A stretch of 64,000 nucleotides of DNA from a virus. Lineage: Duplodnaviria > Heunggongvirae > Uroviricota > Caudoviricetes. The translations under genes were made by a program, and so were the position numbers. Of this stretch, positions 31,098-47,268 are shown in pieces; the first letter of the stretch is position 1; the number at the start of each line of letters is the position of its first letter. Under the pieces are notes generated by a model. The model worked only from the letters and a program-made list of their open reading frames with translations, was not told the DNA's origin and searched no databases. The DNA lies in the IMG/VR virus record IMGVR_UViG_2693429637_000011. One strand, written 5' to 3'.

Positions 31098-33242
31098 TCA
31101 TAGCGGCAATTCATGCATCCGCTGTTGTAGTGTATGTAGCATCTGTTGCTGAAGAGCTTCCTGCTCCTGTTCAATATTCTGTATGCCGGTAATGATTTCT
31201 GCCGTATGCGCCTGGTTGAGCGCATCCACATAACGCTGTCCCTGTGCCGCGGCGACATCCCGTTGTGCGCCAGCATTATCCCGTTGCGCAGCTGCCTGTG
31301 CCCTGGCAGCTTCTGCTTCCAGTTTAGCCACCCGGCCTGCCATTTCGCGCATCTGCAGTTCCTGTTGTTGCTGCTCCTGGGCCTGTTGCTGCTGAGCGGC
31401 CTGCTGCTCTTCCGGGGTCATCTCATCCGGTGATTTTGGTGTCCCCAGCGCCGCACGAATACGTTCGACAAATTCCTGTTTCTGCGGCACATCCAGAAGG
31501 TTAACCCACAGGTCGAGCACGACGGCCTGCACCTGAGGTGGCAGCCCCTGAATAACCTCTGACATTCGCTGTGCAAGCTGTGCCTTAAACGCCGGTGTCT
31601 GCTGAACAGGAGCCAGCGCAATATGTGTATTTAACCTTGAAATATCATTGGTCAGTTCACCATTATCACCTTCAGCATTGAGAACAATGGTCTGGCGACG
31701 CTGGCGATCATCACGATTAATCACCACCGCATGATTACGCCGCTTTTTCAGGCCATCGAGAAGATAAGCGAGCAACAGCCTTCCCACCTGCTGGCAGGCA
31801 AACTGGTAGTTATCGTTGATTTCGGCAAGGGTTGTGGCTCCCTGCTCCACCAGGTTGCTGATCGCCACGCCGGACGATGCATTTGAATCCTGCCCGAGAA
31901 ATGCGGAATAAACCCCCATCGTGTCCTGGATAAGTTTTTCCGACTCCTGCATGACCTGAAACTGCTGGCTGGCAACCTGAAAATCCTGTTCAACCCGGAA
32001 AACATCAGCAACGCTTTTCTGATTTTTTCGGGCCGGATTCAGTTTAATAATGCCATCCGGACGCTCGATCTGCTCCATCAGCTCGTTGTCTGACAACTGG
32101 GTGGCATCCTCGTCCATAATCACGCGTTTGGCCTGAAGCAACCACGTCAGTTTTATACGACGAAAATTCACCTCATCCTGTGCCGGAATGGCCCGGGAAA
32201 TCAGCCCGTAAGGCTCCCCGGTTTTATCCTTCCGGTATCCCCAGAAGGGAACCAGCGGGAACATCCCCTGCGGCGCACTGCAGGGGCGATCCACAATAAA
32301 GTGCGGTCCCACAAACCAGGCTTCACGAATACGACTTACCCGCCCGACTCTCACCTGCACCCGCCCGGATGCCACAGCCACCGCATGCATCAGATTATTT
32401 TTATCAAAGGCCACCACCCGTCCATTACTGAGTTCAATCACCGGAAGACGCTCGAATGTACGGTAATAAACCACCTGAAGCAGCACACGACGGCGTTCAC
32501 GCTGAAGCCATTCGTTCTCCTTACGATCCCATGACTGATACTCTTCCCATGCACTCATCAACGGACTGGGCTGGCCTTCAGTAACCGTGGTATCGACAAA
32601 ACCACGCCAGTCATCAATGGCATAATCGATAACCTGAGCCATTCCCGGGAATGTGGCTTTTGCCTCATCGGTATCCATCCAGCGGCGGCGCATCAGCCAG
32701 CGGCAGTCACTTAAATCAGCTTCCCGGCTGAGCCAGTCCCAGAACACTTCTTTCCGGCTGACAGTAGACACCTTAAACTCAGGCCCGAACGGATCGCTGT
32801 TCCGTCTGACCTCCACCCAGCTGAGCCCCGCCTTGATTTGTTCCGCATAGGCATCAGAGCGGGCTTTATTCATATTGCCAAGGCGGCATGCATCGGCAAA
32901 TTCAGCATTAATAGCTTCAGCCAGTTTTTCAGTTTCATCATCTGGTTCGTCTGACATCACCACCAGATCAGTCCGTGTTTTGGCCTCCATTCCCAGAACA
33001 CCATCAACGGTAGGCGCGATGAGGTTATGGATAGTCATCGGCTGACCGCGATCTTTCAGTACCTGAAGAACTTCTGGTGGCAACTGGTCACCATCGTAAT
33101 ACGCACAGGCCTTGTTTGCGGCATCGCGCCATTTAGGCTGACTGTCAATATCAGAACAAAGCGCCTGTAACTGGCGCTGAGAAAAACGCGGCGTGGCTCC
33201 GTTGTCGTTTTTCGTCGCCATGGTATTAGTTTCATTTTTCAT
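31098..33242 (-). CDS. Portal protein
   Basis: 714-aa ORF immediately downstream of terminase large subunit; Gln/Ala-rich coiled-coil C-terminus. Confidence 0.6.
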   Translation of the reverse strand: MKNETNTMATKNDNGATPRFSQRQLQALCSDIDSQPKWRDAANKACAYYDGDQLPPEVLQVLKDRGQPMTIHNLIAPTVDGVLGMEAKTRTDLVVMSDEPDDETEKLAEAINAEFADACRLGNMNKARSDAYAEQIKAGLSWVEVRRNSDPFGPEFKVSTVSRKEVFWDWLSREADLSDCRWLMRRRWMDTDEAKATFPGMAQVIDYAIDDWRGFVDTTVTEGQPSPLMSAWEEYQSWDRKENEWLQRERRRVLLQVVYYRTFERLPVIELSNGRVVAFDKNNLMHAVAVASGRVQVRVGRVSRIREAWFVGPHFIVDRPCSAPQGMFPLVPFWGYRKDKTGEPYGLISRAIPAQDEVNFRRIKLTWLLQAKRVIMDEDATQLSDNELMEQIERPDGIIKLNPARKNQKSVADVFRVEQDFQVASQQFQVMQESEKLIQDTMGVYSAFLGQDSNASSGVAISNLVEQGATTLAEINDNYQFACQQVGRLLLAYLLDGLKKRRNHAVVINRDDRQRRQTIVLNAEGDNGELTNDISRLNTHIALAPVQQTPAFKAQLAQRMSEVIQGLPPQVQAVVLDLWVNLLDVPQKQEFVERIRAALGTPKSPDEMTPEEQQAAQQQQAQEQQQQELQMREMAGRVAKLEAEAARAQAAAQRDNAGAQRDVAAAQGQRYVDALNQAHTAEIITGIQNIEQEQEALQQQMLHTLQQRMHELPL

Positions 33243-34948
33243 CAGTGAGCCATCCAGTGTGTGGTTCTGCGTTTATCCGTTTTCTGTCTTACCCTCACCG
33301 GCATTCTGGCGCGCATCTCCTGGGCAATCATGTAGCTCATAAGCTGATCATCAAAACAGCCTTCCTGTGCATTCATGGAGCCTTTCGCGTCATAAACGTA
33401 GGTGTTCATTTCTGATAATGTGCCCGTCCAGCGGATCCCCGACAGGCCGTTATTCAGCAGCGTTTTCATTCCCTCAGTCAGGACCGGTTTACTCTGGCGG
33501 GTTGTCAGCCAGCCAAGACGGGGCGTATCGTCGTCATATGCCTGGTCAAGGTGCTGTTCGTTGTAGATATAACGCGTCGGATAGAGTTCCCGGAGTTTCA
33601 GGATAACGGCATGTCCGTGATTGTTACGCTCCGGCCCCACAAACGCGTTGTTGTACATACGGCAGACCTGCGCAATGAGATGAGCGAAAAGCTCCGCATC
33701 GAGATGACCAAACCAGTGGGCTACCTGCTCACCATTACTACATCTGATGATATCCAGCGATGAGCGGTCTCCGTGCTCCAGCCCCTCAGCAGTATCCGCT
33801 CCGCATACATACTCTTCATCCGGATCCGGTAGCTCCCAGACCAGCAGATAATTCATCAGCGTCCGGTGCTGTTCGGCTTTATTCCCGTCACGCAGAGACT
33901 GCGCTTTGGTCTTCGTTCCTGTAACCGGTTCAATGTCATAAACAATCAGCGGTGGCGAACAGAATGACTCTGCCTGCAGCGTGCTTTCCGCACTGAACAC
34001 CCGTCGTCCGGACGTCAGAAACGCCTCCTGTGGTGTTGAGGGAAACTCCTGCTTCATTTCCTCACGCTGTTCAGTTTCCTTGCAGATGTACCAGTGTTTC
34101 TGCTCATCGGTAAGCGTGATGTTCATTGCTTTTTCAACCGCAGAAAAATACGCTGTTTTTTCCCGTGACAGCTTAAGTCCGCTTTCCGGCACTCTGGCGC
34201 TGTATTTGAGATCCTGCCACCAGGCGTAAAAATGGAATTTATAATCCTGTGGCGTCAGCGCCAGCCCTGATGCAGTGATTTCCTGTGCCCGGTTACTCAT
34301 CTCGTAAAAATCGCCACCCACACCTTCAGCAGTGGATTCATCAAAAATAATGCACTCATCAGAGACGGCATTAAGTGTACCGGTTCGCAGCTCTTTCGCC
34401 TTAGCCGGATATTTTGCGCAAATTTTGCCGTGCTCTGAGATATGCAGGCGCTGCACCGTACCTGAACGGAATGAGGTTGCCACCTGGATACTCGAGCCGT
34501 GCCCAAACAGGATATAGCCACCGCTGGCTCCGCTACGACGTTCAACGATGGTGAATGAGGCTCTCAGCCAGTCAGGAAGATGATCAAACGGTACAGCAAT
34601 TTTGGTGCGGAAAATTTCACTGGCAGCCTGTTTATCCTGAGCGACAATCCCGCATTTGAGATGCGGTATGAATAATGCCTGGTCGAGAAGATAAATATCA
34701 ATGGCCGTGGAAAACCCCAGCTGGCGTGCTTTCAGGATAATATTTTTATTGTGCATGCTCCGGAACAACTGGCGCTGCGCCGGTCGCATTCTGAAGGTGA
34801 CCAGCTCACCTTTTTCGTTCTGTATCTTGTAGAGATGATTGAGCCGCCACCAGGGATTGCTCAGTTTAGTCATGATGAACAGACGTTGTTCGGCCTCTGT
34901 CATTTCTGACGGTTCATCACATCGCGGTTCATTCTTCCGGAATGTCAT
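33242..34948 (-). CDS. Terminase large subunit
   Basis: 568 aa; ATPase-like motif KARQLGFSTAIDIYLLD; overlaps small-subunit gene. Confidence 0.7.
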   Translation of the reverse strand: MTFRKNEPRCDEPSEMTEAEQRLFIMTKLSNPWWRLNHLYKIQNEKGELVTFRMRPAQRQLFRSMHNKNIILKARQLGFSTAIDIYLLDQALFIPHLKCGIVAQDKQAASEIFRTKIAVPFDHLPDWLRASFTIVERRSGASGGYILFGHGSSIQVATSFRSGTVQRLHISEHGKICAKYPAKAKELRTGTLNAVSDECIIFDESTAEGVGGDFYEMSNRAQEITASGLALTPQDYKFHFYAWWQDLKYSARVPESGLKLSREKTAYFSAVEKAMNITLTDEQKHWYICKETEQREEMKQEFPSTPQEAFLTSGRRVFSAESTLQAESFCSPPLIVYDIEPVTGTKTKAQSLRDGNKAEQHRTLMNYLLVWELPDPDEEYVCGADTAEGLEHGDRSSLDIIRCSNGEQVAHWFGHLDAELFAHLIAQVCRMYNNAFVGPERNNHGHAVILKLRELYPTRYIYNEQHLDQAYDDDTPRLGWLTTRQSKPVLTEGMKTLLNNGLSGIRWTGTLSEMNTYVYDAKGSMNAQEGCFDDQLMSYMIAQEMRARMPVRVRQKTDKRRTTHWMAH

Positions 34949-35744
34949 CCAGTCTCCCCGAATTACTCATTTCATGCAGCGATGACACGATGTCACTGAC
35001 AGGCGTAACAACGCCCCGACGCTGGCTGGTCAGAATATCGGTTTCCGCTCTGAGTTTATCTCTGGCAGCGTTGGTTCTTTCCCGGTCAGCACGAAGTTTT
35101 GGTGCTGTTTCAGCCAGAACGTCCAGCGTCAGCAATGAGCGTTCAATTGACTCGATACGGGCAATATTCCGGTCAAGAGCCTGTTCAGCTTTGAGTATTT
35201 TGTCGTACAGAGCAACGCGGGTTTCCACGTCAGCCGCCTCTTTCAGGTCGGCGAACATTTTTTTCAGTGTTCCTGTTACTGAAAGTGCGCGGGCCCGGGT
35301 AAACACCAGTTCATCGGCAAGTTCCATTCCGACTGCATCATCTATGAGGTTATCTGCCTCGAGATACTTCGCGTATCCACGGTGTCTGACGGCGTGGGTG
35401 TTACGCTGAGAAAAAGCATTTGAAGGTGGCAAAAGTCTGGAACCACGAGTCCGTTTCGTTTCTGCCAAATTTGCGCATTTTTCATCACAACCATCATCGC
35501 CTGAAGGCTCGTCATGACTGGAGTTGCCGTCAGATTTCTGCGCACTTTTTTGATCATCAATTTGCGCATTTTTCTGCGCACTTTTCTCTGTATTTCTGGG
35601 GGAGTGTTTGCGCAGTTTAATGTACCGCCGAGCCGTGTCATAACTGATATTGTTCTGACGGCACCAGTCCTGAAGCTTTATGCCGGTTTTGACATGTTCG
35701 CGTCGAAATGCCTGCTCCAGCTTTTTCCAGTCCAGCTTTGCCAT
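34929..35744 (-). CDS. Terminase small subunit
   Basis: 271 aa with N-terminal HTH-like LQDWCRQNNISYDTARRYIK; first gene of the packaging operon. Confidence 0.5.
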   Translation of the reverse strand: MAKLDWKKLEQAFRREHVKTGIKLQDWCRQNNISYDTARRYIKLRKHSPRNTEKSAQKNAQIDDQKSAQKSDGNSSHDEPSGDDGCDEKCANLAETKRTRGSRLLPPSNAFSQRNTHAVRHRGYAKYLEADNLIDDAVGMELADELVFTRARALSVTGTLKKMFADLKEAADVETRVALYDKILKAEQALDRNIARIESIERSLLTLDVLAETAPKLRADRERTNAARDKLRAETDILTSQRRGVVTPVSDIVSSLHEMSNSGRLDDIPEE

Positions 35745-36346
35745 GTCACCTTCTGACGTTCTCTGTTAAAAACTGATGCACAATGACTGCTGTAAATTTT
35801 CAGATTTCACACAGCAGAGCCATGTCTGATTAATGTTTAACCTTATTTAGGTTATATCCGCTTCATTCCACTACAGCACCAGATAGGCTGCCTCGCGGAT
35901 AAATGCCAAAGTCTCCTGATATAGAAACCCGTCGCCACATCGAGCGCTGATCAACATTTGTATATTCACTGCGACAGAAAGAATTTATTTTATTGAATAG
36001 TTAGAAATACAGAATTGCATGCTTTATAAGCATTGACGCACACTTCATTTTTAGCAATATATTCTGTTCTCATAGACGATCAGCCCTGCATGCACTGCCG
36101 GACACCGTCGGCAATTTTACAGACCTAAGAGGCAATACCAAAAAGCTAACGCGCTTTATCAAGACTTGAACAACCAACCAATAAAAAAAGCACCAGTACC
36201 GCTACCAATGCCCATTTCGTCGTTGTTCACAGCATTCTGTGTACCCACTGTATTTCGCGTCATATCACCACGTCAGACAATCCTTAAGGATTACATAAGA
36301 TTTACGCATAATAATGCCCATTTTCAACACAGACAAGGGAATTTAT

Positions 36347-36928
36347 ATGTTAAATCAAACGCTAACAAAATCTCTTCTTATATTTTTACTTGTCATAATC
36401 GTTTCTGTATCCATCATATACATTGTAAGAACTCCAGTCAGACTTGATGTGAACGATGTCACTGAGATTAACCAGAAACATCCCATTATTTTTCTCATCC
36501 GGCATGGGGAAAGATGCGATCGCTCCCAAAGAATATGTCTTTCAGCACATGAGGGAATCACAGTAAACGGAGCTAACAAAGCTCAACAATATGGAGATAA
36601 ATTCAGAAGAATGTTTCCATACTACAGTCTCTATTCTACAGACACACTCCGAACAATGCAGACAGCCACTTTTTTTTCGGGAGGTAAGACAGCAACTATT
36701 CCGGACATATCGACATGTGATGATAACGCAGTAAATAATATCCTTAAAATATCAAAATCAGATCATGTTACTGTGATTTTCACACATAATCACTGTCTGT
36801 CCAGAATTGCAAAAAAAATGAATGGATGGAGATTTAAACCTGATTATATGGGCACACTGGTTCTGCATCGGGAAAATCACAATCTGATTCTCGACGGACA
36901 TTTAAAACCAAACGAGCTTACCCAGTGA
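36347..36928 (+). CDS. Ais/PmrG-like histidine phosphatase (putative LPS core heptose(II)-phosphate phosphatase), moron in bor position
   Basis: N-terminal membrane anchor; IRHGERCDRS and FTHNHCL motifs resembling E. coli Ais/PmrG as recalled; AT-rich, opposite strand to late genes; start set at ATG 36347 after aaggga. Confidence 0.65.
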   Translation: MLNQTLTKSLLIFLLVIIVSVSIIYIVRTPVRLDVNDVTEINQKHPIIFLIRHGERCDRSQRICLSAHEGITVNGANKAQQYGDKFRRMFPYYSLYSTDTLRTMQTATFFSGGKTATIPDISTCDDNAVNNILKISKSDHVTVIFTHNHCLSRIAKKMNGWRFKPDYMGTLVLHRENHNLILDGHLKPNELTQ

Positions 36929-37008
36929 TCCATTTGTTGATAATGCACTGGCATTGATTCAGGTTATATCTCTCCTCATAAAAAAGGCCAGCGATTGAGC
37001 TGGCTCTG

Positions 37009-37467
37009 TTAATCGAGGCATTGCATCCTGATGTACTCCTGCAGGTAGTTAACCTGCGCGGTTATCTTGTCGATTCCACTTCGGAGACGGTAATAATTGA
37101 GTTCAGCATCTGCTGTAAGTCCTGGGCTTTCTCCATCGCCCATGCCGCTGGCTCCGGTCGTTGACTTTGCACAGGTGGCGGCGACTTGCAGGCGCTTACG
37201 CCCAGCAGAAACATCAGCACGGAGACTTTCAATAGTCGCGTTAGCATCAGCAAGCTCCCTGGTGTATCTGGCATCGAGTGCAGCAACATCACGCTGGCGC
37301 TGCTGTATGTCAGCAATGGTGGCGTTCGCCTGGCTGAGTTTTGTCTTCGCATCATCTCGCTGCTCTTTGTAGGTGATGGCGTTATCACGGTAATGGTCTG
37401 TTGCCAGCCACAGCGATCCACAACCAAGCAGCAGGACAATAAGCACGCCATACAGCACACGATTCAT
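37009..37467 (-). CDS. Rz: Rz i-spanin
   Basis: 152 aa, N-terminal transmembrane segment then coiled coil; immediately downstream of endolysin region; embedded Rz1. Confidence 0.7.
   Translation of the reverse strand: MNRVLYGVLIVLLLGCGSLWLATDHYRDNAITYKEQRDDAKTKLSQANATIADIQQRQRDVAALDARYTRELADANATIESLRADVSAGRKRLQVAATCAKSTTGASGMGDGESPGLTADAELNYYRLRSGIDKITAQVNYLQEYIRMQCLD
37062..37247 (-). CDS. Rz1: Rz1 o-spanin lipoprotein (embedded in Rz, +1 frame)
   Basis: MLTRLLKVSVLMFLLGVSAC lipobox signal followed by Pro-rich segment. Confidence 0.6.
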   Translation of the reverse strand: MLTRLLKVSVLMFLLGVSACKSPPPVQSQRPEPAAWAMEKAQDLQQMLNSIITVSEVESTR

Positions 37468-37468
37468 A

Positions 37469-37582
37469 TCACCACCAACGGATTGCCCAGACCAGAACAG
37501 CAATTGCCACAATACGAATGGCAAAAGCTGCCGCTCTTGTTAAATCCAGACTTGCTGGCGTCTCCACCTCAATGCCTTTCAT
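37469..37582 (-). CDS. Small (37 aa) membrane protein between endolysin and Rz
   Basis: MKGIEVETPASLDLTRAAAFAIRIVAIAVLVWAIRWW; stop 2 nt before Rz ATG; preceded by hairpin terminator; not in the ORF track. Confidence 0.3.
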   Translation of the reverse strand: MKGIEVETPASLDLTRAAAFAIRIVAIAVLVWAIRWW

Positions 37583-37802
37583 AATGGACAACCTCAGAAA
37601 GAATCTTTTATACTTCCTCACAGGGAAAGAACCTCCCTACCCATAATTTCTCCCTTGCCTTATTCAAGGTCAGAAACACAAAACCCCGCTTGCTGCCAAC
37701 AAACGGGGTTTTTACTTTTACTCACTTAAATTTTGCCAGTTCGCAGGATTTCGTGTTATCCGTTCGCGTTGGTCAACGGCATTTTTCAGCAGAATATTCT
37801 GC

Positions 37803-38336
37803 TTATCTGTCGATACTCCAGCACGCCAGCGCGCTCTCCTGGTCACGCCGCGATACCTGCCCGTAACAGTTATTTGAGCGGTTCCGACAGTCCCTGCCGC
37901 CGTCATATATCCATCGGCGGATTTCAGCACATGCACCTTTCCGGTCTCCTGCGTTCAGTTTCCGGTAAAACGTTGAGGTGAAGCATTTCGAAGGCCCGAT
38001 GTTGTACGGACAGAATGACGCGATGCCCGCTTTCTGCGGTTCGGTCAGTGGCACTCTGATGTTTTTCTCCACCCATGCCAGCGCCTTATCACGCTCAATG
38101 GCGTTAACCCGGTCGCATTTTTCCTTCGACAACTTCATGCCCGGAACGACAGGTTTGCCATCCACCAGGATGGCACCGCGGCAGATAGTCCAGATACCCG
38201 CACCATCACGGTATGCCGTGGTGTGGTTACCTTCTTTTTCGTCAAGAAACTGGTCGAGGATTTCAGGCGCAGAAGCGCCCGCAGCAATCAGCGCCAGAAC
38301 GACCGCTGATAAACCATAGCGGAATTTCCTGCTCAT
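37803..38336 (-). CDS. R: SAR endolysin (GH24 T4-lysozyme-like)
   Basis: N-terminal signal-anchor-release-like segment; catalytic Glu-Asp-Thr spacing (EGNHTTAYRDGAGIWT) as in T4 lysozyme. Confidence 0.8.
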   Translation of the reverse strand: MSRKFRYGLSAVVLALIAAGASAPEILDQFLDEKEGNHTTAYRDGAGIWTICRGAILVDGKPVVPGMKLSKEKCDRVNAIERDKALAWVEKNIRVPLTEPQKAGIASFCPYNIGPSKCFTSTFYRKLNAGDRKGACAEIRRWIYDGGRDCRNRSNNCYGQVSRRDQESALACWSIDR

Positions 38337-39224: not shown

Positions 39225-41135
39225 TTATGCGGCTGCTCCAGCTTTGTTTGCTTTAACTTCCACCGTATCAATAAGTACAGGGTAGGTTTCTGCACTACCT
39301 GTAATATCCGTAATGACAAACCTGTTGAGTCCATTAGCAGTATTGGCCCATTTCACCAGGTCAAACGCCTGTCCATCCACACCATCGAGCACCGGAGTAA
39401 CATTAATGCTGTTACTGCCCTTAAATTTAAATGCAAGCGTATGCCAGTCATGGTCGAATGCGCCAAACGTGCCAAGTTCTTTTTGTTGATTAACTGTATG
39501 ATGGTATGCAACATTAATACTGGCTTTATCTGTCTGGACAAAGAAAGAACTCAGATGGCCTTCACCACCCTCACCCGGCCATTCCGCTATTCGCCAGTAC
39601 AAACCAAAGGCATACTTGTTTCTGGTTGTCTCAAGATTGACGTTTTCGGGGATTTTAAACCGGACAGCAATTTCTCCGCCTTTTTCCAGTAAAAGTTTTG
39701 CCTTGTCTGCAGCAATATCACAGTACATTGACCAGGATTTCGCGCTGTTATTTTTCTCAATTCGCAGAGCTTTATTGCCGCTGTCATCAACCAGTGTGCG
39801 CCTGCCATACACACCGTCCCAGCCATAGGGTTTCAGCTGATTGTCTGTAGCTTTTTTGGCATCGTAAAAAATTACAGACTCTGAGGTGGTAACCGGTCTG
39901 TCTGGAACAACCACCCCGGCAGTACCATTAACAAACGCAGAAGACTTACCCGCGCAGCTCAGAATCGCAGTTGCCAGACGGTCGGAAATAATCCCACGGC
40001 GAGCCCATGAACTGAAATGGCTCGCCCTGTCCTGTGACGTCCAGGTGGCTGAGCTGTCACGCCATTTCGAACCGTAATAACCGATACCCGGAATGTCCGG
40101 GTCTTCTTCCGGTTTGTTCGTCGGCACATTCACCCCGTTCTCATCGGTCATGAACGGTACGAAATGGATATTCTTTTCCGTTTTATTTTTATAGCTGCCG
40201 TACACCGTCTGGTACGTGGATTCGTTCTTCTGCTTCCAGAAATACGTCGTGTCCCCGCATATCCAGGGAACACCGCCAGCAGAGCCACCGACGCACTGGC
40301 CTGCCATATCCGCCAGGTCTGCACGGAATTTATCAACCAGCGCACCAAACTGTGCGGCATGATTTGCCGGCGTACCGCCAAAATCAAATTCCCCCTGCAT
40401 CCACACCACGGCAAACAGCACATTTTTCGGGTTCTTCTCCAGTGCCGCTTTTGTTCGACCGATAAGGTCCTTATACAGCGGCTTGTCCACACCCCAGCGG
40501 GTTGAATTCTCCGAGGCGCCACTCGCGTCACTGTATGTGCCATCAGCTCCGGTGGTGAACGCTGAACCACCACGACAGCACGGAACCAGCAGAATGCCCG
40601 CATTCGCCGGTATAAACGGCAGCAGTTTTTTGGCGATATGCAGCCCCTGCCCCACGGTTCCGTACTGCCCCTTTGACAGGTCCGCTTTCGGATGGTTAAG
40701 ACGGCTCATGTCCTGCACATCATGCAGACAATGGTCCGCCGGAATGATGTCGTTATATTTGCATGCTGCACCGCCCGGTGTCACCGTACTGCGACGCGCT
40801 AACTGTTTAATACGTGGATCAGGGCTGTCGAATGTATCCGGTAATGGCAGTCCCTCACCGTATGACATACCATTGGACTGACCAGCAAGCGCGATCACAT
40901 AGTAATATTCTGGCGCAACAGAAGGCGCTGAGGTCGTCGGACGGTTGCCTGGCTCCTCTGGTGATGAGATGCTCCCCTCACTCACAACTGGCTGGATGAA
41001 CTCCGCACCATAACCAGCTGTCGAAATCAGCGCACTACCATAAGGCTGCCACCCTTCCTTCAGTTTTTGAGTTATTCGTTTCGCAAGGTCTGACGGCGAC
41101 GCCGCCCTGACAACATCATAGTGTTTAAATGCCAT
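39225..41135 (-). CDS. nanS-p: Sialate O-acetylesterase, prophage NanS-p-like (copy 1)
   Basis: 636 aa; GQSN catalytic motif of the SASA/SGNH esterase family; conserved N-terminal MAFKHYDVVRAASPSDLAK...KEGWQP domain. Confidence 0.7.
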   Translation of the reverse strand: MAFKHYDVVRAASPSDLAKRITQKLKEGWQPYGSALISTAGYGAEFIQPVVSEGSISSPEEPGNRPTTSAPSVAPEYYYVIALAGQSNGMSYGEGLPLPDTFDSPDPRIKQLARRSTVTPGGAACKYNDIIPADHCLHDVQDMSRLNHPKADLSKGQYGTVGQGLHIAKKLLPFIPANAGILLVPCCRGGSAFTTGADGTYSDASGASENSTRWGVDKPLYKDLIGRTKAALEKNPKNVLFAVVWMQGEFDFGGTPANHAAQFGALVDKFRADLADMAGQCVGGSAGGVPWICGDTTYFWKQKNESTYQTVYGSYKNKTEKNIHFVPFMTDENGVNVPTNKPEEDPDIPGIGYYGSKWRDSSATWTSQDRASHFSSWARRGIISDRLATAILSCAGKSSAFVNGTAGVVVPDRPVTTSESVIFYDAKKATDNQLKPYGWDGVYGRRTLVDDSGNKALRIEKNNSAKSWSMYCDIAADKAKLLLEKGGEIAVRFKIPENVNLETTRNKYAFGLYWRIAEWPGEGGEGHLSSFFVQTDKASINVAYHHTVNQQKELGTFGAFDHDWHTLAFKFKGSNSINVTPVLDGVDGQAFDLVKWANTANGLNRFVITDITGSAETYPVLIDTVEVKANKAGAAA

Positions 41136-41557
41136 GAATCCTCCCGGCCGGGATAATATTGTGAGTAAAATAAGGAGCGGGCTGAAGTCCGGAAGTTACA
41201 GGACAATGGCAGAAGGGAGACTACAGCCCGCAATTCGAAAAAGGTCGCGCAGTTGCGCAGAGTGATTACTATGGGGTATTATTCGCCAGCTGAAATATTA
41301 CTTCACGTTTCATTGTTCATTCCTTGCCGCCCGCGTCTCCCAGCGCGGGCTTTTTTGTCCATAAGAAAGCCCCTCCGGAGAGGGGCTGGAGAGTGGCGCT
41401 ATGTGCCATTGCATGGTGCCGGGTGCCTCCCGGTGAGTTCAGCCCGGTGCCACTAAACCCGCGTCATTCTCGTTTTGATAATCAGAGATTATACCGTCAC
41501 CAGTCGCCCCTCCGCTCAGGGGGATTCACCATGCAGTTTTTTCTAACAAATTCTCAT
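41050..41557. repeat. Repeat A copy 1 (nanS-p 5' end plus ~400-bp upstream element)
   Basis: Near-identical to 45250..45742 and, in part, 46000..46300; contains hairpin cccgcg-N8-cgcggg plus T-run and a perfect TATAAT on the minus strand. Confidence 0.6.
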
Positions 41558-42596
41558 CAGCGCGGGTTTGATTACCGTATCCCTTCATTGGTCGGTTATT
41601 CATGTCCGTCAGCAACTCCCGAAGGCGTGCATTCAGCGCCCTGAGCGTGTGGAAGGTTTCATTACGGATGCGGGCAAGAAGCCATCGCTCGACGATGAGG
41701 ACGCCGTTTTCTGCTTTTGGTTTATCTTTAGGTTTGCGCGGGCGGGCCGGGATAATAACCGTGCCATAGTGCTCAGCCAGCGCCTGATAACTGTCGTTGA
41801 TGACAGGCTCATAGCGATCGGCTTTTTTCACTGCGCTTCTGAGGTTATCGGGGATGAGCAGCTTCGGTACGCCGCCCAGGAAGGTCAGGCAACGGCTGTG
41901 GGCATTTAACCATGACATCATGTCCTGACCTTCGCACGCTTCAACATAGGTATAGTTGGACGCCCCCATTACAGCCACGAAGATTGCCACGCGGCGTATC
42001 TCTCCGGTGTCCGGATTAATAACAGGGACCGTAGGACCACAGAAGTCGATAAAGAGCTTTTCGCCAGCACGATGCTCCTGTCGCATGGAGAGGCGTCGCG
42101 TTTTTTTCCACTTCCGGTAGCAACGGCAGAAGTGTGAGTATCCCATCGCTTTGTCACCCGCCTGTGCCTTGTATTCCATCCACAACAGTTGGCGCGTCAC
42201 GCCAGGTTTTCTCATTTCCGTATCGAAGTACAGCATGTCAGGCATAACAAGCTCTGACGCAGAGGTGTCTTTGGGCGGGAAAATGAGTTTCTCCAGCGTG
42301 TCATGGGATATATCCGCAGGTAATGGCCATGACAGAGAAGAGGCTTTGAAGCGGGCAAGAACCTCAAAAACGGTTGAGGCGCTGATGTGTAACGTCAGTC
42401 CGATACAACGGTTAGTCAGCTTCTTATCGAACTTGAGCTGAAGGATCTTAAAACAAGTTTCCATAGTGCTCCTGGATTTTCTCTTTTTGGACATTGACGT
42501 CTCCACTGGTTTAAACACGGCAATGGAGACTGTGGTGAAAAGAGTTAATTCCCGGAGTGACTGGCGAATTCCAATCAATGATCGGAAGTATGCCAA
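41526..42596 (-). CDS. IstA-like DDE transposase, probably truncated
   Basis: HTH N-terminus and FIDFCGPTV...VAIFVAV...YTYVE core; last codons read into repeat A. Confidence 0.5.
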   Translation of the reverse strand: MAYFRSLIGIRQSLRELTLFTTVSIAVFKPVETSMSKKRKSRSTMETCFKILQLKFDKKLTNRCIGLTLHISASTVFEVLARFKASSLSWPLPADISHDTLEKLIFPPKDTSASELVMPDMLYFDTEMRKPGVTRQLLWMEYKAQAGDKAMGYSHFCRCYRKWKKTRRLSMRQEHRAGEKLFIDFCGPTVPVINPDTGEIRRVAIFVAVMGASNYTYVEACEGQDMMSWLNAHSRCLTFLGGVPKLLIPDNLRSAVKKADRYEPVINDSYQALAEHYGTVIIPARPRKPKDKPKAENGVLIVERWLLARIRNETFHTLRALNARLRELLTDMNNRPMKGYGNQTRADENLLEKTAW

Positions 42597-43485: not shown

Positions 43486-45339
43486 TTATGATGATGCCGG
43501 TGCATTTATCTCCAGCACCAGACTTTCTATCTCAACGCCATACGCTGCATTTTTGGTAATATCCGTCAGCGTCAGCGCATTCAGCCCCAGTGTCAGACTG
43601 TCTTTTATGACCTGGAATGCCGGGCCAGCCACTCCATTCAGTTTCGGAGTAACCGTGGCACTGCCGGCGGTGAACACCAGCTCCAGCGTCAGCCAGTCGT
43701 TACTGTAATTCCCGAACTCGCCCAACTTTGTGTTTCCTGCTTTCTTGTGATGCATCAGATTCAGTTTGCCGTCTGTGGTCTGGGTGAAGAACGACATCAG
43801 GAACGGGTTACCAGTCCCGGTCATCGCCACGACGTCAGGTAACGCTACATCGGTATACAGATAAATTCCCAGACCGAACTGGTTGTTGGTCAGTGCGCCT
43901 GACAGTCGAAACTTACAGCTCAGTCTGCCACCCCGTGTCAGCAGGGAGACTGCGTCATCCACCGGGCGCGTCAGGGACCAGGCTTTATTGCTCTGCTTGG
44001 TGATCTTAAATACACCATCTGACAACTGAACTCCGCCATTCTTAATGCTCCAGCCCTGCGCAGCAGCGTCTCCGGCTGTCGGCAACAGGGAGATTGTGCG
44101 TATGGATGCATCTTCAGACGGCCCCGATGGCGTGTCGCCGCCGGGCGAGGGTTTGATTTCCGGTGCCTTACCACTAATGAAGGCTAAGGTGCGACCGGCT
44201 ACGTTCAGAATAGCAGTTGCCATACGATCGGGAATAATGCCACGACGCGCCCATGAGCTGAAATGCGTCGGGCGATTTGATGATACCCAGTTTTTGTTCG
44301 TTCGGGATGCCGAACCGTAATAACCAGACCCGGCAATATCAGGATCTTCTGACGGGTTGTTTGTCGGTGTATTAACTCCGCTACCATCGGTCATAAAGGG
44401 AACAAAATAAATCTGCTGGGATTCTTTACCTTTATATGCACCATATACCACTTCATATTGCGTACCGTGTTCTTGTTTCCACGCGTATGTCGTGTCGCCA
44501 CAAATCCAGGGGACTGATGCCGGACTTCCACCGTGACACTGCGCCGCCAGCCCGGCAAGGTCAGCACGGAACTGCTGTACCATTGCAAGAAATGCTGCTG
44601 GCTGCTGGGCGTAACTGGCATTCGTCATATCGAATTCCCCCTGCATCCAGCATATCGCCAGCAAAACGTTTTTCGGGTTTTTCTGCAATGCTGCCTTCGT
44701 GCGGAAAAGCAGATCCTGATATAACGGCTTACCCACTCCCCAGCGAGCCGAATCCTGACTGGCCCCCGTGGACTCGCTGAATGTCCCCTCCGTGCCCTGG
44801 GTGAATGCCGAACCACCACGACAGCATGGTACCAGCAGGATCCCCGCATTATTAGGGATATACGGAAGCAGTTTTTTGGCAATATGTAAGCCCTGTCCGA
44901 CACAGCCGTACTGCCCTTTGCTCAGGTCAGCCCGGGGATGGTTAATCGTACTCATATCCTGAACATCATGCAGACAATGGTCAGCAGGAATGATGTCGTT
45001 AAATACGCATACTTCACCACCGGGAGTCACTGTGTTACGACGGGCCAGTTGCTTAATGCGCGGATGGGGCGCATCGTATGAATCCGGAAGCGGAAGACCT
45101 TCACCGTAAGCCATGGCATTGGATTGCCCGGCCAGTACGATGACGTAGTACCACTCCGGCTCAGTTGCACCACTGACGACCACATCACCTTCTGCTGCAA
45201 TCGCCTGCATCAGGGTATAAGGGGTTATGGCCACCGGACTACCAAACGGCTGCCAGCCCTCCTTCAGTTTTTGTGTCAGTCGTTTCGCAAGGTCTGACGG
45301 CGATGCCGCCCTGACCACGTCATAGTGTTTAAATGCCAT
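43486..45339 (-). CDS. nanS-p: Sialate O-acetylesterase, NanS-p-like (copy 2, diverged paralog)
   Basis: 617 aa; GQSN motif; N-terminus identical to copy 1, remainder diverged. Confidence 0.7.
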   Translation of the reverse strand: MAFKHYDVVRAASPSDLAKRLTQKLKEGWQPFGSPVAITPYTLMQAIAAEGDVVVSGATEPEWYYVIVLAGQSNAMAYGEGLPLPDSYDAPHPRIKQLARRNTVTPGGEVCVFNDIIPADHCLHDVQDMSTINHPRADLSKGQYGCVGQGLHIAKKLLPYIPNNAGILLVPCCRGGSAFTQGTEGTFSESTGASQDSARWGVGKPLYQDLLFRTKAALQKNPKNVLLAICWMQGEFDMTNASYAQQPAAFLAMVQQFRADLAGLAAQCHGGSPASVPWICGDTTYAWKQEHGTQYEVVYGAYKGKESQQIYFVPFMTDGSGVNTPTNNPSEDPDIAGSGYYGSASRTNKNWVSSNRPTHFSSWARRGIIPDRMATAILNVAGRTLAFISGKAPEIKPSPGGDTPSGPSEDASIRTISLLPTAGDAAAQGWSIKNGGVQLSDGVFKITKQSNKAWSLTRPVDDAVSLLTRGGRLSCKFRLSGALTNNQFGLGIYLYTDVALPDVVAMTGTGNPFLMSFFTQTTDGKLNLMHHKKAGNTKLGEFGNYSNDWLTLELVFTAGSATVTPKLNGVAGPAFQVIKDSLTLGLNALTLTDITKNAAYGVEIESLVLEINAPASS

Positions 45340-46643: not shown

Positions 46644-47078
46644 TTACGATCGTAAACTATTTTTTCGCTGATAAAATACAGAGCTTCTCCCTCCCGGCAA
46701 TTCACGCTCAACATACCGATCCATCTCAAGCCTCACTCCCAGCATCATCAGCATGCCTTCAACAATCCCCTCCGCTTTGTGAAGGCGTTTACCTATACAG
46801 GTGTCAGAGCACCCATGTTTCCGTGCCAGCGCCATGAACGTCTCCCCCAACACGTAGTAATCAACCAGCAAGTCATGCAGATCGCGATTGTTCCGGTAAA
46901 GGCGGGCTATGCACCCGCATATCACCATCGCATCATCGTCACAGCACTGTGGACGTGATTTTACTTTTTCGGGGATCAGTCCCTTAAATCCGGCAGCAAT
47001 GGGCGACCATGTAACATCCTCATAGTTATTTACCGCCCATGCCCCCCAGCGCTCAAGAACCTGCCGGATATCACGCAT
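46644..47078 (-). CDS. Q: Late antiterminator Q (Stx-phage/933W-type)
   Basis: 144 aa; [25 protein letters not shown]...[11 protein letters not shown]... resembles 933W/H-19B Q; start overlaps NinH stop. Confidence 0.75.
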
Positions 47079-47268
47079 CAGTATCTTTACCCCATCCGCG
47101 ATGAACCATAAGGACGCCATTGACGACGGCGTGCTTTTTCGCATCTTTATCATCAATGTATTTTCTGACTGTAGCACGATTGCAGTTCAGTATTCTGGCG
47201 ACTTCTGTCTGATTTCCCCTGGTGCAGATCAGTAATTCAGGTATCGTTTGAATTTTAGCATTCATCAA
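47071..47268 (-). CDS. ninH: NinH-like protein
   Basis: [25 protein letters not shown]...VLMVHRGW resembles lambda NinH. Confidence 0.6.

Follow-up and report, generated by a model that had tools for sequence, protein, structure and literature searches.

The closest described relatives of the gene considered here are the chromosomal ais of Escherichia coli and pmrG of Salmonella. Salmonella PmrG dephosphorylates heptose II of the lipopolysaccharide (LPS) core, a role which, in the account of Nishino 2006 given in PMC8129183, came from a study of resistance to Fe(III) and Al(III). The regulator BasR, also called PmrA, binds chromosomal ais and activates it (PMC12419081). As for its place in a phage genome, the nearest precedent is bor of lambda and 933W, an AT-rich moron of the lysogen-expressed type. 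Here we describe an Ais/PmrG-like histidine phosphatase gene in a 64,000-nucleotide stretch of Caudoviricetes DNA (IMG/VR record IMGVR_UViG_2693429637_000011), the whole of which is referred to as the window. The gene, at 36347-36928 on the plus strand, encodes a protein of 193 residues, with the stop codon within these coordinates. We consider it probable that it is a functional prophage moron, whose product is a predicted membrane-anchored phosphatase of the Ais/PmrG subfamily that would remove phosphate from the LPS core, and whose predicted promoter would be activated by BasR.

The prophage protein shares with chromosomal Ais/PmrG the subfamily hidden Markov model (HMM), the RHxERCDRS and FTHNHCL motifs, the conserved cysteines, its size, an N-terminus of predicted exported type and a putative link to PmrA/BasR. 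It differs in having RHG where the chromosomal proteins have RHA, and a long, apparently uncleaved anchor where they have a signal peptide. Whereas chromosomal ais is found beside arnB, the phosphatase gene is carried by a prophage and has its putative regulator box at the -35 position, as arnB and eptA do. Neither the gene nor its family is new, as RefSeq names the protein by its subfamily HMM and the gene is annotated in genomes of the O104:H4 outbreak. What is new here is a predicted BasR/PmrA-type promoter block, conserved before every close copy. The traits that distinguish the gene are its carriage on mobile elements, its predicted membrane anchor and its predicted BasR promoter of the arnB/eptA type.

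A predicted membrane-anchored phosphatase

The preliminary description of this DNA had placed an AT-rich gene on the strand opposite the late operon, and its coordinates, strand and base composition were all correct. The open reading frame (ORF) given in the window's ORF list spans 36314-36928 on the plus strand, the GC content of the phosphatase gene is 0.375 compared with 0.52 for the flanking late genes, and all of its long neighbors are late phage genes on the minus strand. The translation start is ATG 36347 and not the upstream ATG 36314; a Shine-Dalgarno sequence read from the DNA, AAGGGA (36335-36340, plus strand), lies 6 nt 5' of ATG 36347 and the RefSeq protein WP_000934362.1 has the same start. 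The ATG at 36314 has no Shine-Dalgarno sequence and lies inside the predicted promoter. The gene is 100% identical to that for WP_000934362.1 in E. coli O104:H4 2011C-3493, and most homologues have a comparable length (191-194 residues).

Assignment of the protein to the Ais/PmrG subfamily was based on the NCBIfam model NF011945, which it matched with 201.9 bits (E = 7e-60; curated cut-off 142 bits). The same model gave 389.6 bits for K-12 Ais, 366.1 for Salmonella PmrG and 295.1 for TraG of IncI plasmids. The Pfam model His_Phos_1 (PF00300) was also matched, with 28.7 bits against a cut-off of 21.7. An equivalog model for PmrG, NF052369, gave 113.2 bits, below its cut-off of 170, and was dropped as a membership test since genuine K-12 Ais (145.8 bits) and Salmonella PmrG (146.1 bits) also fall short of it. 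K-12 Ais was 37% identical to the protein and Salmonella PmrG 39%, and the motifs RHxERCDRS, GIT, RTxQTA, FTHNHCL and KPDY are common to all. PHROGs returned no family for the phosphatase, and no PDB entry matched it by sequence.

The catalytic motif RHGERCDRS (residues 52-60) is encoded at 36500-36526 and the motif FTHNHCL (residues 145-151) at 36779-36799, both on the plus strand. His53 is the predicted nucleophile. In an alignment of 48 sequences, H53, R56, C57, D58, R59, S60, C64, Q105, H147 and C150 were invariant, and R52, E55, R102, F145, T146, N148, H149 and L151 were conserved in at least 90%. By analogy with motifs of SixA and phosphoglycerate mutase, R102, which falls in LRTMQTA, would be the second catalytic arginine and H147 the second catalytic histidine. 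The predicted catalytic core (Arg52-His53, Arg56/Arg59, Arg102 and His147) is complete.

An AlphaFold model of the protein had a predicted local distance difference test (pLDDT) score of 90.7 and a predicted template modelling (pTM) score of 0.84. All of the top 50 Foldseek matches were His_Phos_1 enzymes with a probability of 1.00, phosphoserine phosphatases and SixA among them, and the confident model has a SixA-like fold, of branch 1 of the histidine phosphatases. SixA (1ujb) resembles the phosphatase in its compact fold, with a TM score of 0.70 normalized on SixA, at only ~12% sequence identity. Unlike what is predicted for the prophage phosphatase, SixA is cytoplasmic and acts on the phospho-histidine of ArcB.

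Comparison with six diverged prophage and plasmid copies gave ratios of nonsynonymous to synonymous substitution rates (dN/dS, by the Nei-Gojobori method) of 0.13-0.25 at dS of 0.4-1.0. The ratios are low and the frame has therefore been maintained by selection. By computation, then, the gene encodes an intact, selected and catalytically complete enzyme of the Ais family, whose activity is predicted.

The N-terminus of the phosphatase has a hydrophobic segment, SLLIFLLVIIVSVSIIYIV (codons 9-27; 36371-36427, plus strand), of 19 residues with a mean Kyte-Doolittle hydropathy of 3.06, which is followed by R-T-P and by no small-x-small (AxA-type) site. The related proteins of prophages and plasmids, the prophage/plasmid clade, are alike in this, having a 19-residue segment of mean hydropathy 2.2-3.1, a conserved R-T-P and no small-x-small site. 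Chromosomal Ais/PmrG and IncI TraG have hydrophobic cores of 16-17 residues, followed by sites of the HA-W or KA-K type. Residues 2-27 form a single helix in the AlphaFold model, and cysteines, C57, C64 and C150 among them, are conserved in the alignment of the phosphatase. We infer that the segment is an uncleaved signal anchor, which would hold the catalytic domain at the inner membrane, on its periplasmic side.

The preliminary description had also read the protein as an Ais/PmrG-like histidine phosphatase held in the membrane, and these readings stood. The subfamily score, the 37-39% identity and the His_Phos_1 fold agree with the family named, both motifs are present and conserved across the family, and the alignment check for loss of the catalytic His and Arg residues found them conserved. 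A membrane anchor, as it had proposed, fits the 19-residue stretch, the R-T-P that follows and the lack of a cleavage motif.

A predicted BasR/PmrA-type promoter

A generic sigma-70 scan found no convincing promoter for the gene, and the block described here emerged only when homologous upstream regions were compared (200 nt upstream of nine homologues from five lineages). In these nine promoters a block of the form NTTAAK-N5-N[T/A]TAAK, 10 nt, and a -10 hexamer was conserved within flanking DNA that could not be aligned, with the box beginning 64-71 nt before the ATG. In the window, the putative PmrA/BasR box is CTTAAG-gatta-CATAAG (36283-36299, plus strand), and the spacer atttacgcat separates it from a predicted -10-like hexamer, AATAAT (36310-36315, plus strand). 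The mean majority count per column, out of the five lineages, was 4.3 for each half-site and 4.2 for the -10 hexamer, compared with 2.6 for the 5-nt spacer and 2.7 for the upstream flank. A perfect CTTAAG-N5-CTTAAG was present in one locus (L007) and a perfect TATAAT in another (L006). Of 13 IMG/VR loci examined, 12 had upstream DNA and all 12 had the block.

Published PmrA boxes read CTTAAG-N5-NTTAAT in Salmonella and CTTAAT-N5-CCTAAG at Klebsiella pbgP (PMC3973317). The spacing of the prophage promoter is the same as that of K-12 arnB (CTTAAG-gttaa-GTTAAT, 10 nt, TAAAAT) and K-12 eptA (CTTAAG-gttgg-CTTAAT, 10 nt, GAGCAT). Half-site 1 is the position of the -35 element at pbgP (PMC4660055), and a 17-nt spacer would put the -35 of the prophage promoter there as well. 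Transcription is predicted to begin at ~36321-36324. The composite motif occurred 12 times, counted over both strands, in the 416 kb of DNA fetched for comparison, namely at the nine ais-like promoters, arnB, eptA and one site that is unexplained. The loose box alone is not rare, with five found in the window against three expected per 64 kb, and the argument for a promoter rests for that reason on conservation and geometry. Based on these features, the gene looks wired into the BasSR regulon, such that the moron would be activated by BasR along with the LPS-modification genes of the host.

The DNA upstream of chromosomal ais/pmrG was scanned in Escherichia, Salmonella and Citrobacter. There the ais box, in the copies that have one, is the arnB box read backwards; it has the opposite orientation and, with a single exception, lies 150-210 nt upstream. 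Simple inheritance of the ais promoter by the prophage gene was rejected, since the chromosomal box is distant and reversed in the copies scanned.

Two further observations were made on boxes of this kind. In a locus from a protein cluster named for Salmonella (L015, 4604-5000; GCA_010127125.1; cluster P0007), an IS3-family insertion sequence (IS) ends ~67 nt before the phosphatase start and takes the place of the BasR-type box, with the -10 and the leader kept. The insertion amounts to a natural promoter swap, by which the gene could be freed from BasR control. Separately, a palindromic CTTAAT-N5-ATTAAT lies between the lysis and tRNA genes of two prophages (L005, 7573-7589, and L009, 7765-7781). 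These palindromes fit the loose box on both strands and have no -10 at the right spacing.

Proposed function and its alternatives

In the mechanism that we propose, the uncleaved N-terminal segment of 19 residues would tether the catalytic domain to the inner membrane on the periplasmic side, and there it would meet LPS after the LPS has been flipped. The enzyme would then remove an inner-core phosphate, most likely that of heptose(II) as Salmonella PmrG does, with a neighboring core phosphate as the alternative, and the negative charge of the LPS core would be lowered. Transcription in the lysogen would start at the gene's own promoter and be activated by host BasR (PmrA), with the BasR-type direct repeat standing in for a -35 region exactly as at arnB and eptA. 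The prophage gene would be switched on together with the LPS-remodelling program of its host. Polymyxin resistance is the least likely of the phenotypes proposed, judged by analogy, because deletion of pmrG in E. coli WD101 left resistance to polymyxin B unchanged (PMC8129183). By the same analogy, metal tolerance or effects on surface recognition are more likely.

The relatives of the phosphatase bear on both its substrate and its benefit. A HMMER search over 1.84 billion representative proteins returned 115 clusters at E <= 0.001 and nine at E <= 1e-30. Motifs of the RHGERCDRS and FTHNHCL types occurred together in 262 species genomes, and the 80 best of these loci were mostly from Escherichia, Salmonella and Citrobacter, with many from Pseudomonas. 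In the species-representative genomes nothing exceeded 44% identity to the phosphatase, and the clade of the window therefore lives in the accessory genome. As judged from these searches, the wider Ais-type family is small and largely mobile.

One mobile copy of the Ais subfamily is TraG of IncI1/IncI-gamma plasmids, with 45.6% identity over residues 40-184 and a presence in 1,440 plasmid records. Unlike the prophage gene, traG lies inside a tra operon, encodes a signal-peptide-like N-terminus and has no BasR box upstream. Other relatives, at 64-70% identity, are flanked by IS elements on virulence plasmids beside genes for AIDA-I and F4-type fimbriae. The two of these adhesin-plasmid copies that have intact upstream DNA share with the prophage gene its predicted anchor and its predicted box-plus-10 promoter; they differ in not lying within a prophage. 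A further relative, in a protein cluster whose source name is Salmonella enterica, is beside a fimbrial operon of the CS1/Tcf type. Two distant paralogues at 42-48% identity (L012, 5001-5582, and L018, 5001-5585) are each just downstream of an EAL-domain gene of the c-di-GMP phosphodiesterase type, with a gene for a SPATE autotransporter or an operon for chaperone-usher fimbriae as further neighbors, and neither has a BasR-type box in the 130 nt upstream.

Several points weigh against an LPS-core phosphatase under BasR control. The prophage clade scores ~200 bits on NF011945 compared with 366-390 for chromosomal Ais/PmrG, and identity of substrate is not guaranteed because the HMM name is at the level of a subfamily and the score is about half that of true Ais/PmrG. 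The presence of family members beside fimbrial, adhesin and EAL-domain genes hints at roles other than core dephosphorylation, and a truncated relative in the porcine enterotoxigenic E. coli UMNF18 is named, in its source annotation only, "transcriptional activator AfrS". The call of a signal anchor was made by hydrophobicity and motif inspection only. In the promoter, the second half-site of the window's clade is CATAAG, which departs from the consensus with one mismatch to YTTAAK, and chromosomal ais lacks the geometry of the prophage promoter. Finally, our search of the accessible literature found no experiment on the phosphatase or its close relatives, no paper that deals with the prophage copy or with its clade or promoter, and nothing relevant on AfrS or phage-encoded core phosphatases.

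These points are taken furthest by an alternative in which the fold and chemistry are as described and the substrate or role is another, such as a different core or lipid A phosphate, a lipid carrier or the expression of adhesins, such that the protein would be no duplicate of Ais. We regard this as unlikely, although it is the strongest of the alternatives. It would account for the 37-44% identity of the clade to chromosomal Ais/PmrG, for the halved bit score and the different N-terminus, for the fimbrial (F4-type and CS1/Tcf-type), AIDA-I, EAL-domain and SPATE neighbors and for the AfrS name. It would also ease the redundancy of a third identical activity in O104:H4, which has a chromosomal ais and an IncI TraG (on pESBL) in addition to the prophage gene. 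Against this, the phosphatase and Ais/PmrG have in common every motif residue near the predicted active site, the putative BasR-type promoter would put the gene in an LPS-remodelling regulon, and no evidence was found for any alternative substrate.

The regulatory half of our proposal has a rival of its own, that the direct repeat is not a BasR site and is either bound by another regulator of the OmpR family (e.g., QseB) or conserved for some other reason. The mismatch in CATAAG, the chance expectation of ~3 loose boxes per 64 kb and the different arrangement at chromosomal ais are what it has in its favor, and QseB, a paralogue of PmrA, is a possible regulator, as is none at all. However, conservation is confined to the half-sites and the -10 and does not extend to the spacer and flanks, the spacing is identical to that at arnB and eptA, L007 has a perfect CTTAAG-N5-CTTAAG, and the composite motif left a single unexplained site in 416 kb. 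Taken together, we find a site for another regulator, or for none, rather unlikely.

Less probable still, and in our estimate improbable, is that exclusion is the benefit for which the gene was selected. This alternative keeps the chemistry of the proposed LPS-core phosphatase and holds that the altered core charge makes the lysogen a poorer target for phages that recognize the inner core and a poorer recipient for IncI-type plasmids. The thin pilus of IncI-type plasmids binds LPS (PilV of R64), and the phosphatase family is found almost entirely on mobile elements that interact with the surface, namely prophages and, through TraG with its 1,440 records, IncI plasmids. The type of slot that holds bor, cor or lom commonly carries surface-modifying morons. 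TraG was dispensable for conjugation in a transposon sequencing screen, i.e., for transfer itself (PMC4288162). However, the PADLOC defence models had no match to the phosphatase at E <= 0.01, and a promoter that looks stress-inducible, not constitutive, would be an odd design for exclusion.

That the gene has lost its function and is carried along silently or in decay is very improbable. In favor of this, the lipoprotein gene beside it in its cassette is a pseudogene in the window, an IS element takes the place of the box in the Salmonella-named L015, and the gene is rare, with 43 carriers among 5,426 complete E. coli genomes. Yet its frame is intact in all 43 and in the Stx1 phage GER2, dN/dS is 0.13-0.25 at dS of up to ~1, and the promoter elements are conserved.

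If the LPS-core phosphatase that we favor is active, lysogens would gain an extra, possibly stronger or differently localized, stripping of core charge when BasSR is on. Iron and mild acid are among the gut signals to which BasSR responds. The predicted promoter would be a clean case, open to testing, of a phage moron connected to a two-component regulon of the host. If the enzyme merely duplicates chromosomal Ais, it would be an ordinary accessory paralogue. The recurrence of the clade on prophages, IncI plasmids and adhesin plasmids suggests that core phosphate editing is useful to mobile elements generally, a usefulness on which no study was found in the literature searchable. More broadly, we speculate, and very tentatively, that mobile elements of E. 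coli share a dedicated, anchored clade of Ais-type enzymes, of which the prophage and adhesin-plasmid copies have a BasR-activated promoter, for conditional core editing or exclusion. If this is true, the LPS core would respond to iron or acid signals beyond what the chromosome alone gives, and the pay-off could be that competing phages or plasmids which recognize the core are excluded, or a gain of fitness in the inflamed gut. It would also be a first example of LPS core phosphorylation being edited by a prophage moron under the control of a host two-component system.

The bor slot, its cassette and neighboring genes

On comparison of the genomes, the phosphatase gene is a moron of a Shiga-toxin-type (933W-like) E. 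coli prophage, in the slot that bor holds in its relatives. The slot lies between Rz and the small terminase gene, antisense to the late operon. The preliminary description had likened this position between Rz and the terminase genes to that of bor, and O157:H7 933W-like prophages do carry bor there, on the same relative strand. Although slot and orientation are the same, the bor product of lambda and 933W is an unrelated protein, an outer-membrane lipoprotein of 97 residues and not an enzyme. The deviant GC content, the opposite strand, a predicted promoter of its own and a predicted hairpin downstream are all traits of a moron.

The window is ~89% identical to the O157:H7 933W-like prophages on the terminase side of the slot and 78-85% identical on the lysis side. 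Homology to the bor-carrying prophage of O157:H7 PA20 (L024) ends at 35898 and is back at 37172, which defines a swapped moron cassette (35899-37171, no strand assigned) unlike the corresponding segment of bor-carrying 933W-like prophages. Over positions 35911-37395 the window is instead 78.7% identical to L004, an unrelated lambdoid prophage whose terminase and lysozyme are different. The full gene arrangement was found in 40 genomes, and the flanks alone in thousands. Diverged copies of the gene, with 67-82% nucleotide identity, occupy the same slot on the opposite strand in six further lambdoid prophages, whose lysis modules are of RrrD, M15 peptidase or GH108 type and whose terminases are lambda-type or DUF1441-type.

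The 43 complete E. coli genomes with a near-identical gene all carry it on the chromosome; many are of the O104:H4 lineage, and ML35 and bovine isolates are also among them. The O104:H4 lineage of the 2011 outbreak has the identical gene in a 933W-like prophage that lacks stx. Near-identical genes were found on 22 viral contigs of IMG/VR, and GER2 was the sole carrier among 50,697 phage records. The full frame of 193 residues is intact in GER2 (MG710528.1, 8598-9179), with one substitution, V27A. A frameshift in the GER2 gene was considered and rejected, as the alignment shows an intact frame. The error is in the annotation of the GenBank record, which has just a fragment of 273 nt (90 residues) together with a spurious antisense ORF. 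The gene of E. coli ML35 (NZ_CP025747.1, 2188222-2188803) is identical to that of the window. ML35 is a non-pathogenic laboratory strain, widely used in permeabilization assays of antimicrobial peptides.

A small lipoprotein gene of the phrog_7528 family, whose function is unknown, accompanies the phosphatase gene in the shared cassette and diverges from it. The version in the window (36080-36262, minus strand) is a decayed pseudogene, which lacks an in-frame start and has two TAG stops in frame. An intact version, encoding 60 residues with the lipobox LLVGC, is present in L006 (4545-4727, minus strand) and in L007. In L004 and L005 the putative GTG start of the lipoprotein gene is about a dozen nt from the BasR-type box.

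On the terminase side, the late genes are those for the portal (31098-33242), the large terminase (33242-34948) and the small terminase (34929-35744), all on the minus strand and named from RefSeq annotation of identical genomes; a Pfam search of the two terminase ORFs gave no match. On the lysis side, Rz (37009-37467, minus strand; Pfam Phage_lysis) is followed by a lysozyme gene (37803-38336, minus strand), and a holin gene is also among the late neighbors on the minus strand, both with Pfam support.

Rz and the phosphatase gene are convergent, and between their 3' ends lies a GC-rich hairpin, GCCAGC-tcaatc-GCTGGC (36987-37004, no strand assigned). On the minus strand a T6 run follows the stem, which makes it terminator-like, and on the plus strand the same stem has no T-run. 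RNA folding of the 3' region on the plus strand gave no significant structure (z = -0.63), and an Rfam scan of 35000-38000 found nothing relevant. The hairpin and T6 directly after Rz on the late strand resemble an intrinsic terminator within the late operon. Late transcription would need to read through the hairpin and would then run antisense over the moron.

Downstream of the antiterminator Q gene (46644-47177) are two paralogous genes of the SASA/DUF1737/DUF6645 type, named "SASA family carbohydrate esterase" in RefSeq, on the minus strand and split by an ORF with an rve integrase-core domain. The ORFs of this esterase and rve region lie at 39225-41135, 41526-42596 and 43486-45339, all on the minus strand. 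No ORF of at least 120 residues was present on the late (minus) strand between Q and the esterases, and no intact gene of stxA size was therefore seen there. The stx-less O104:H4 prophage (L002) has one esterase gene at the corresponding place.

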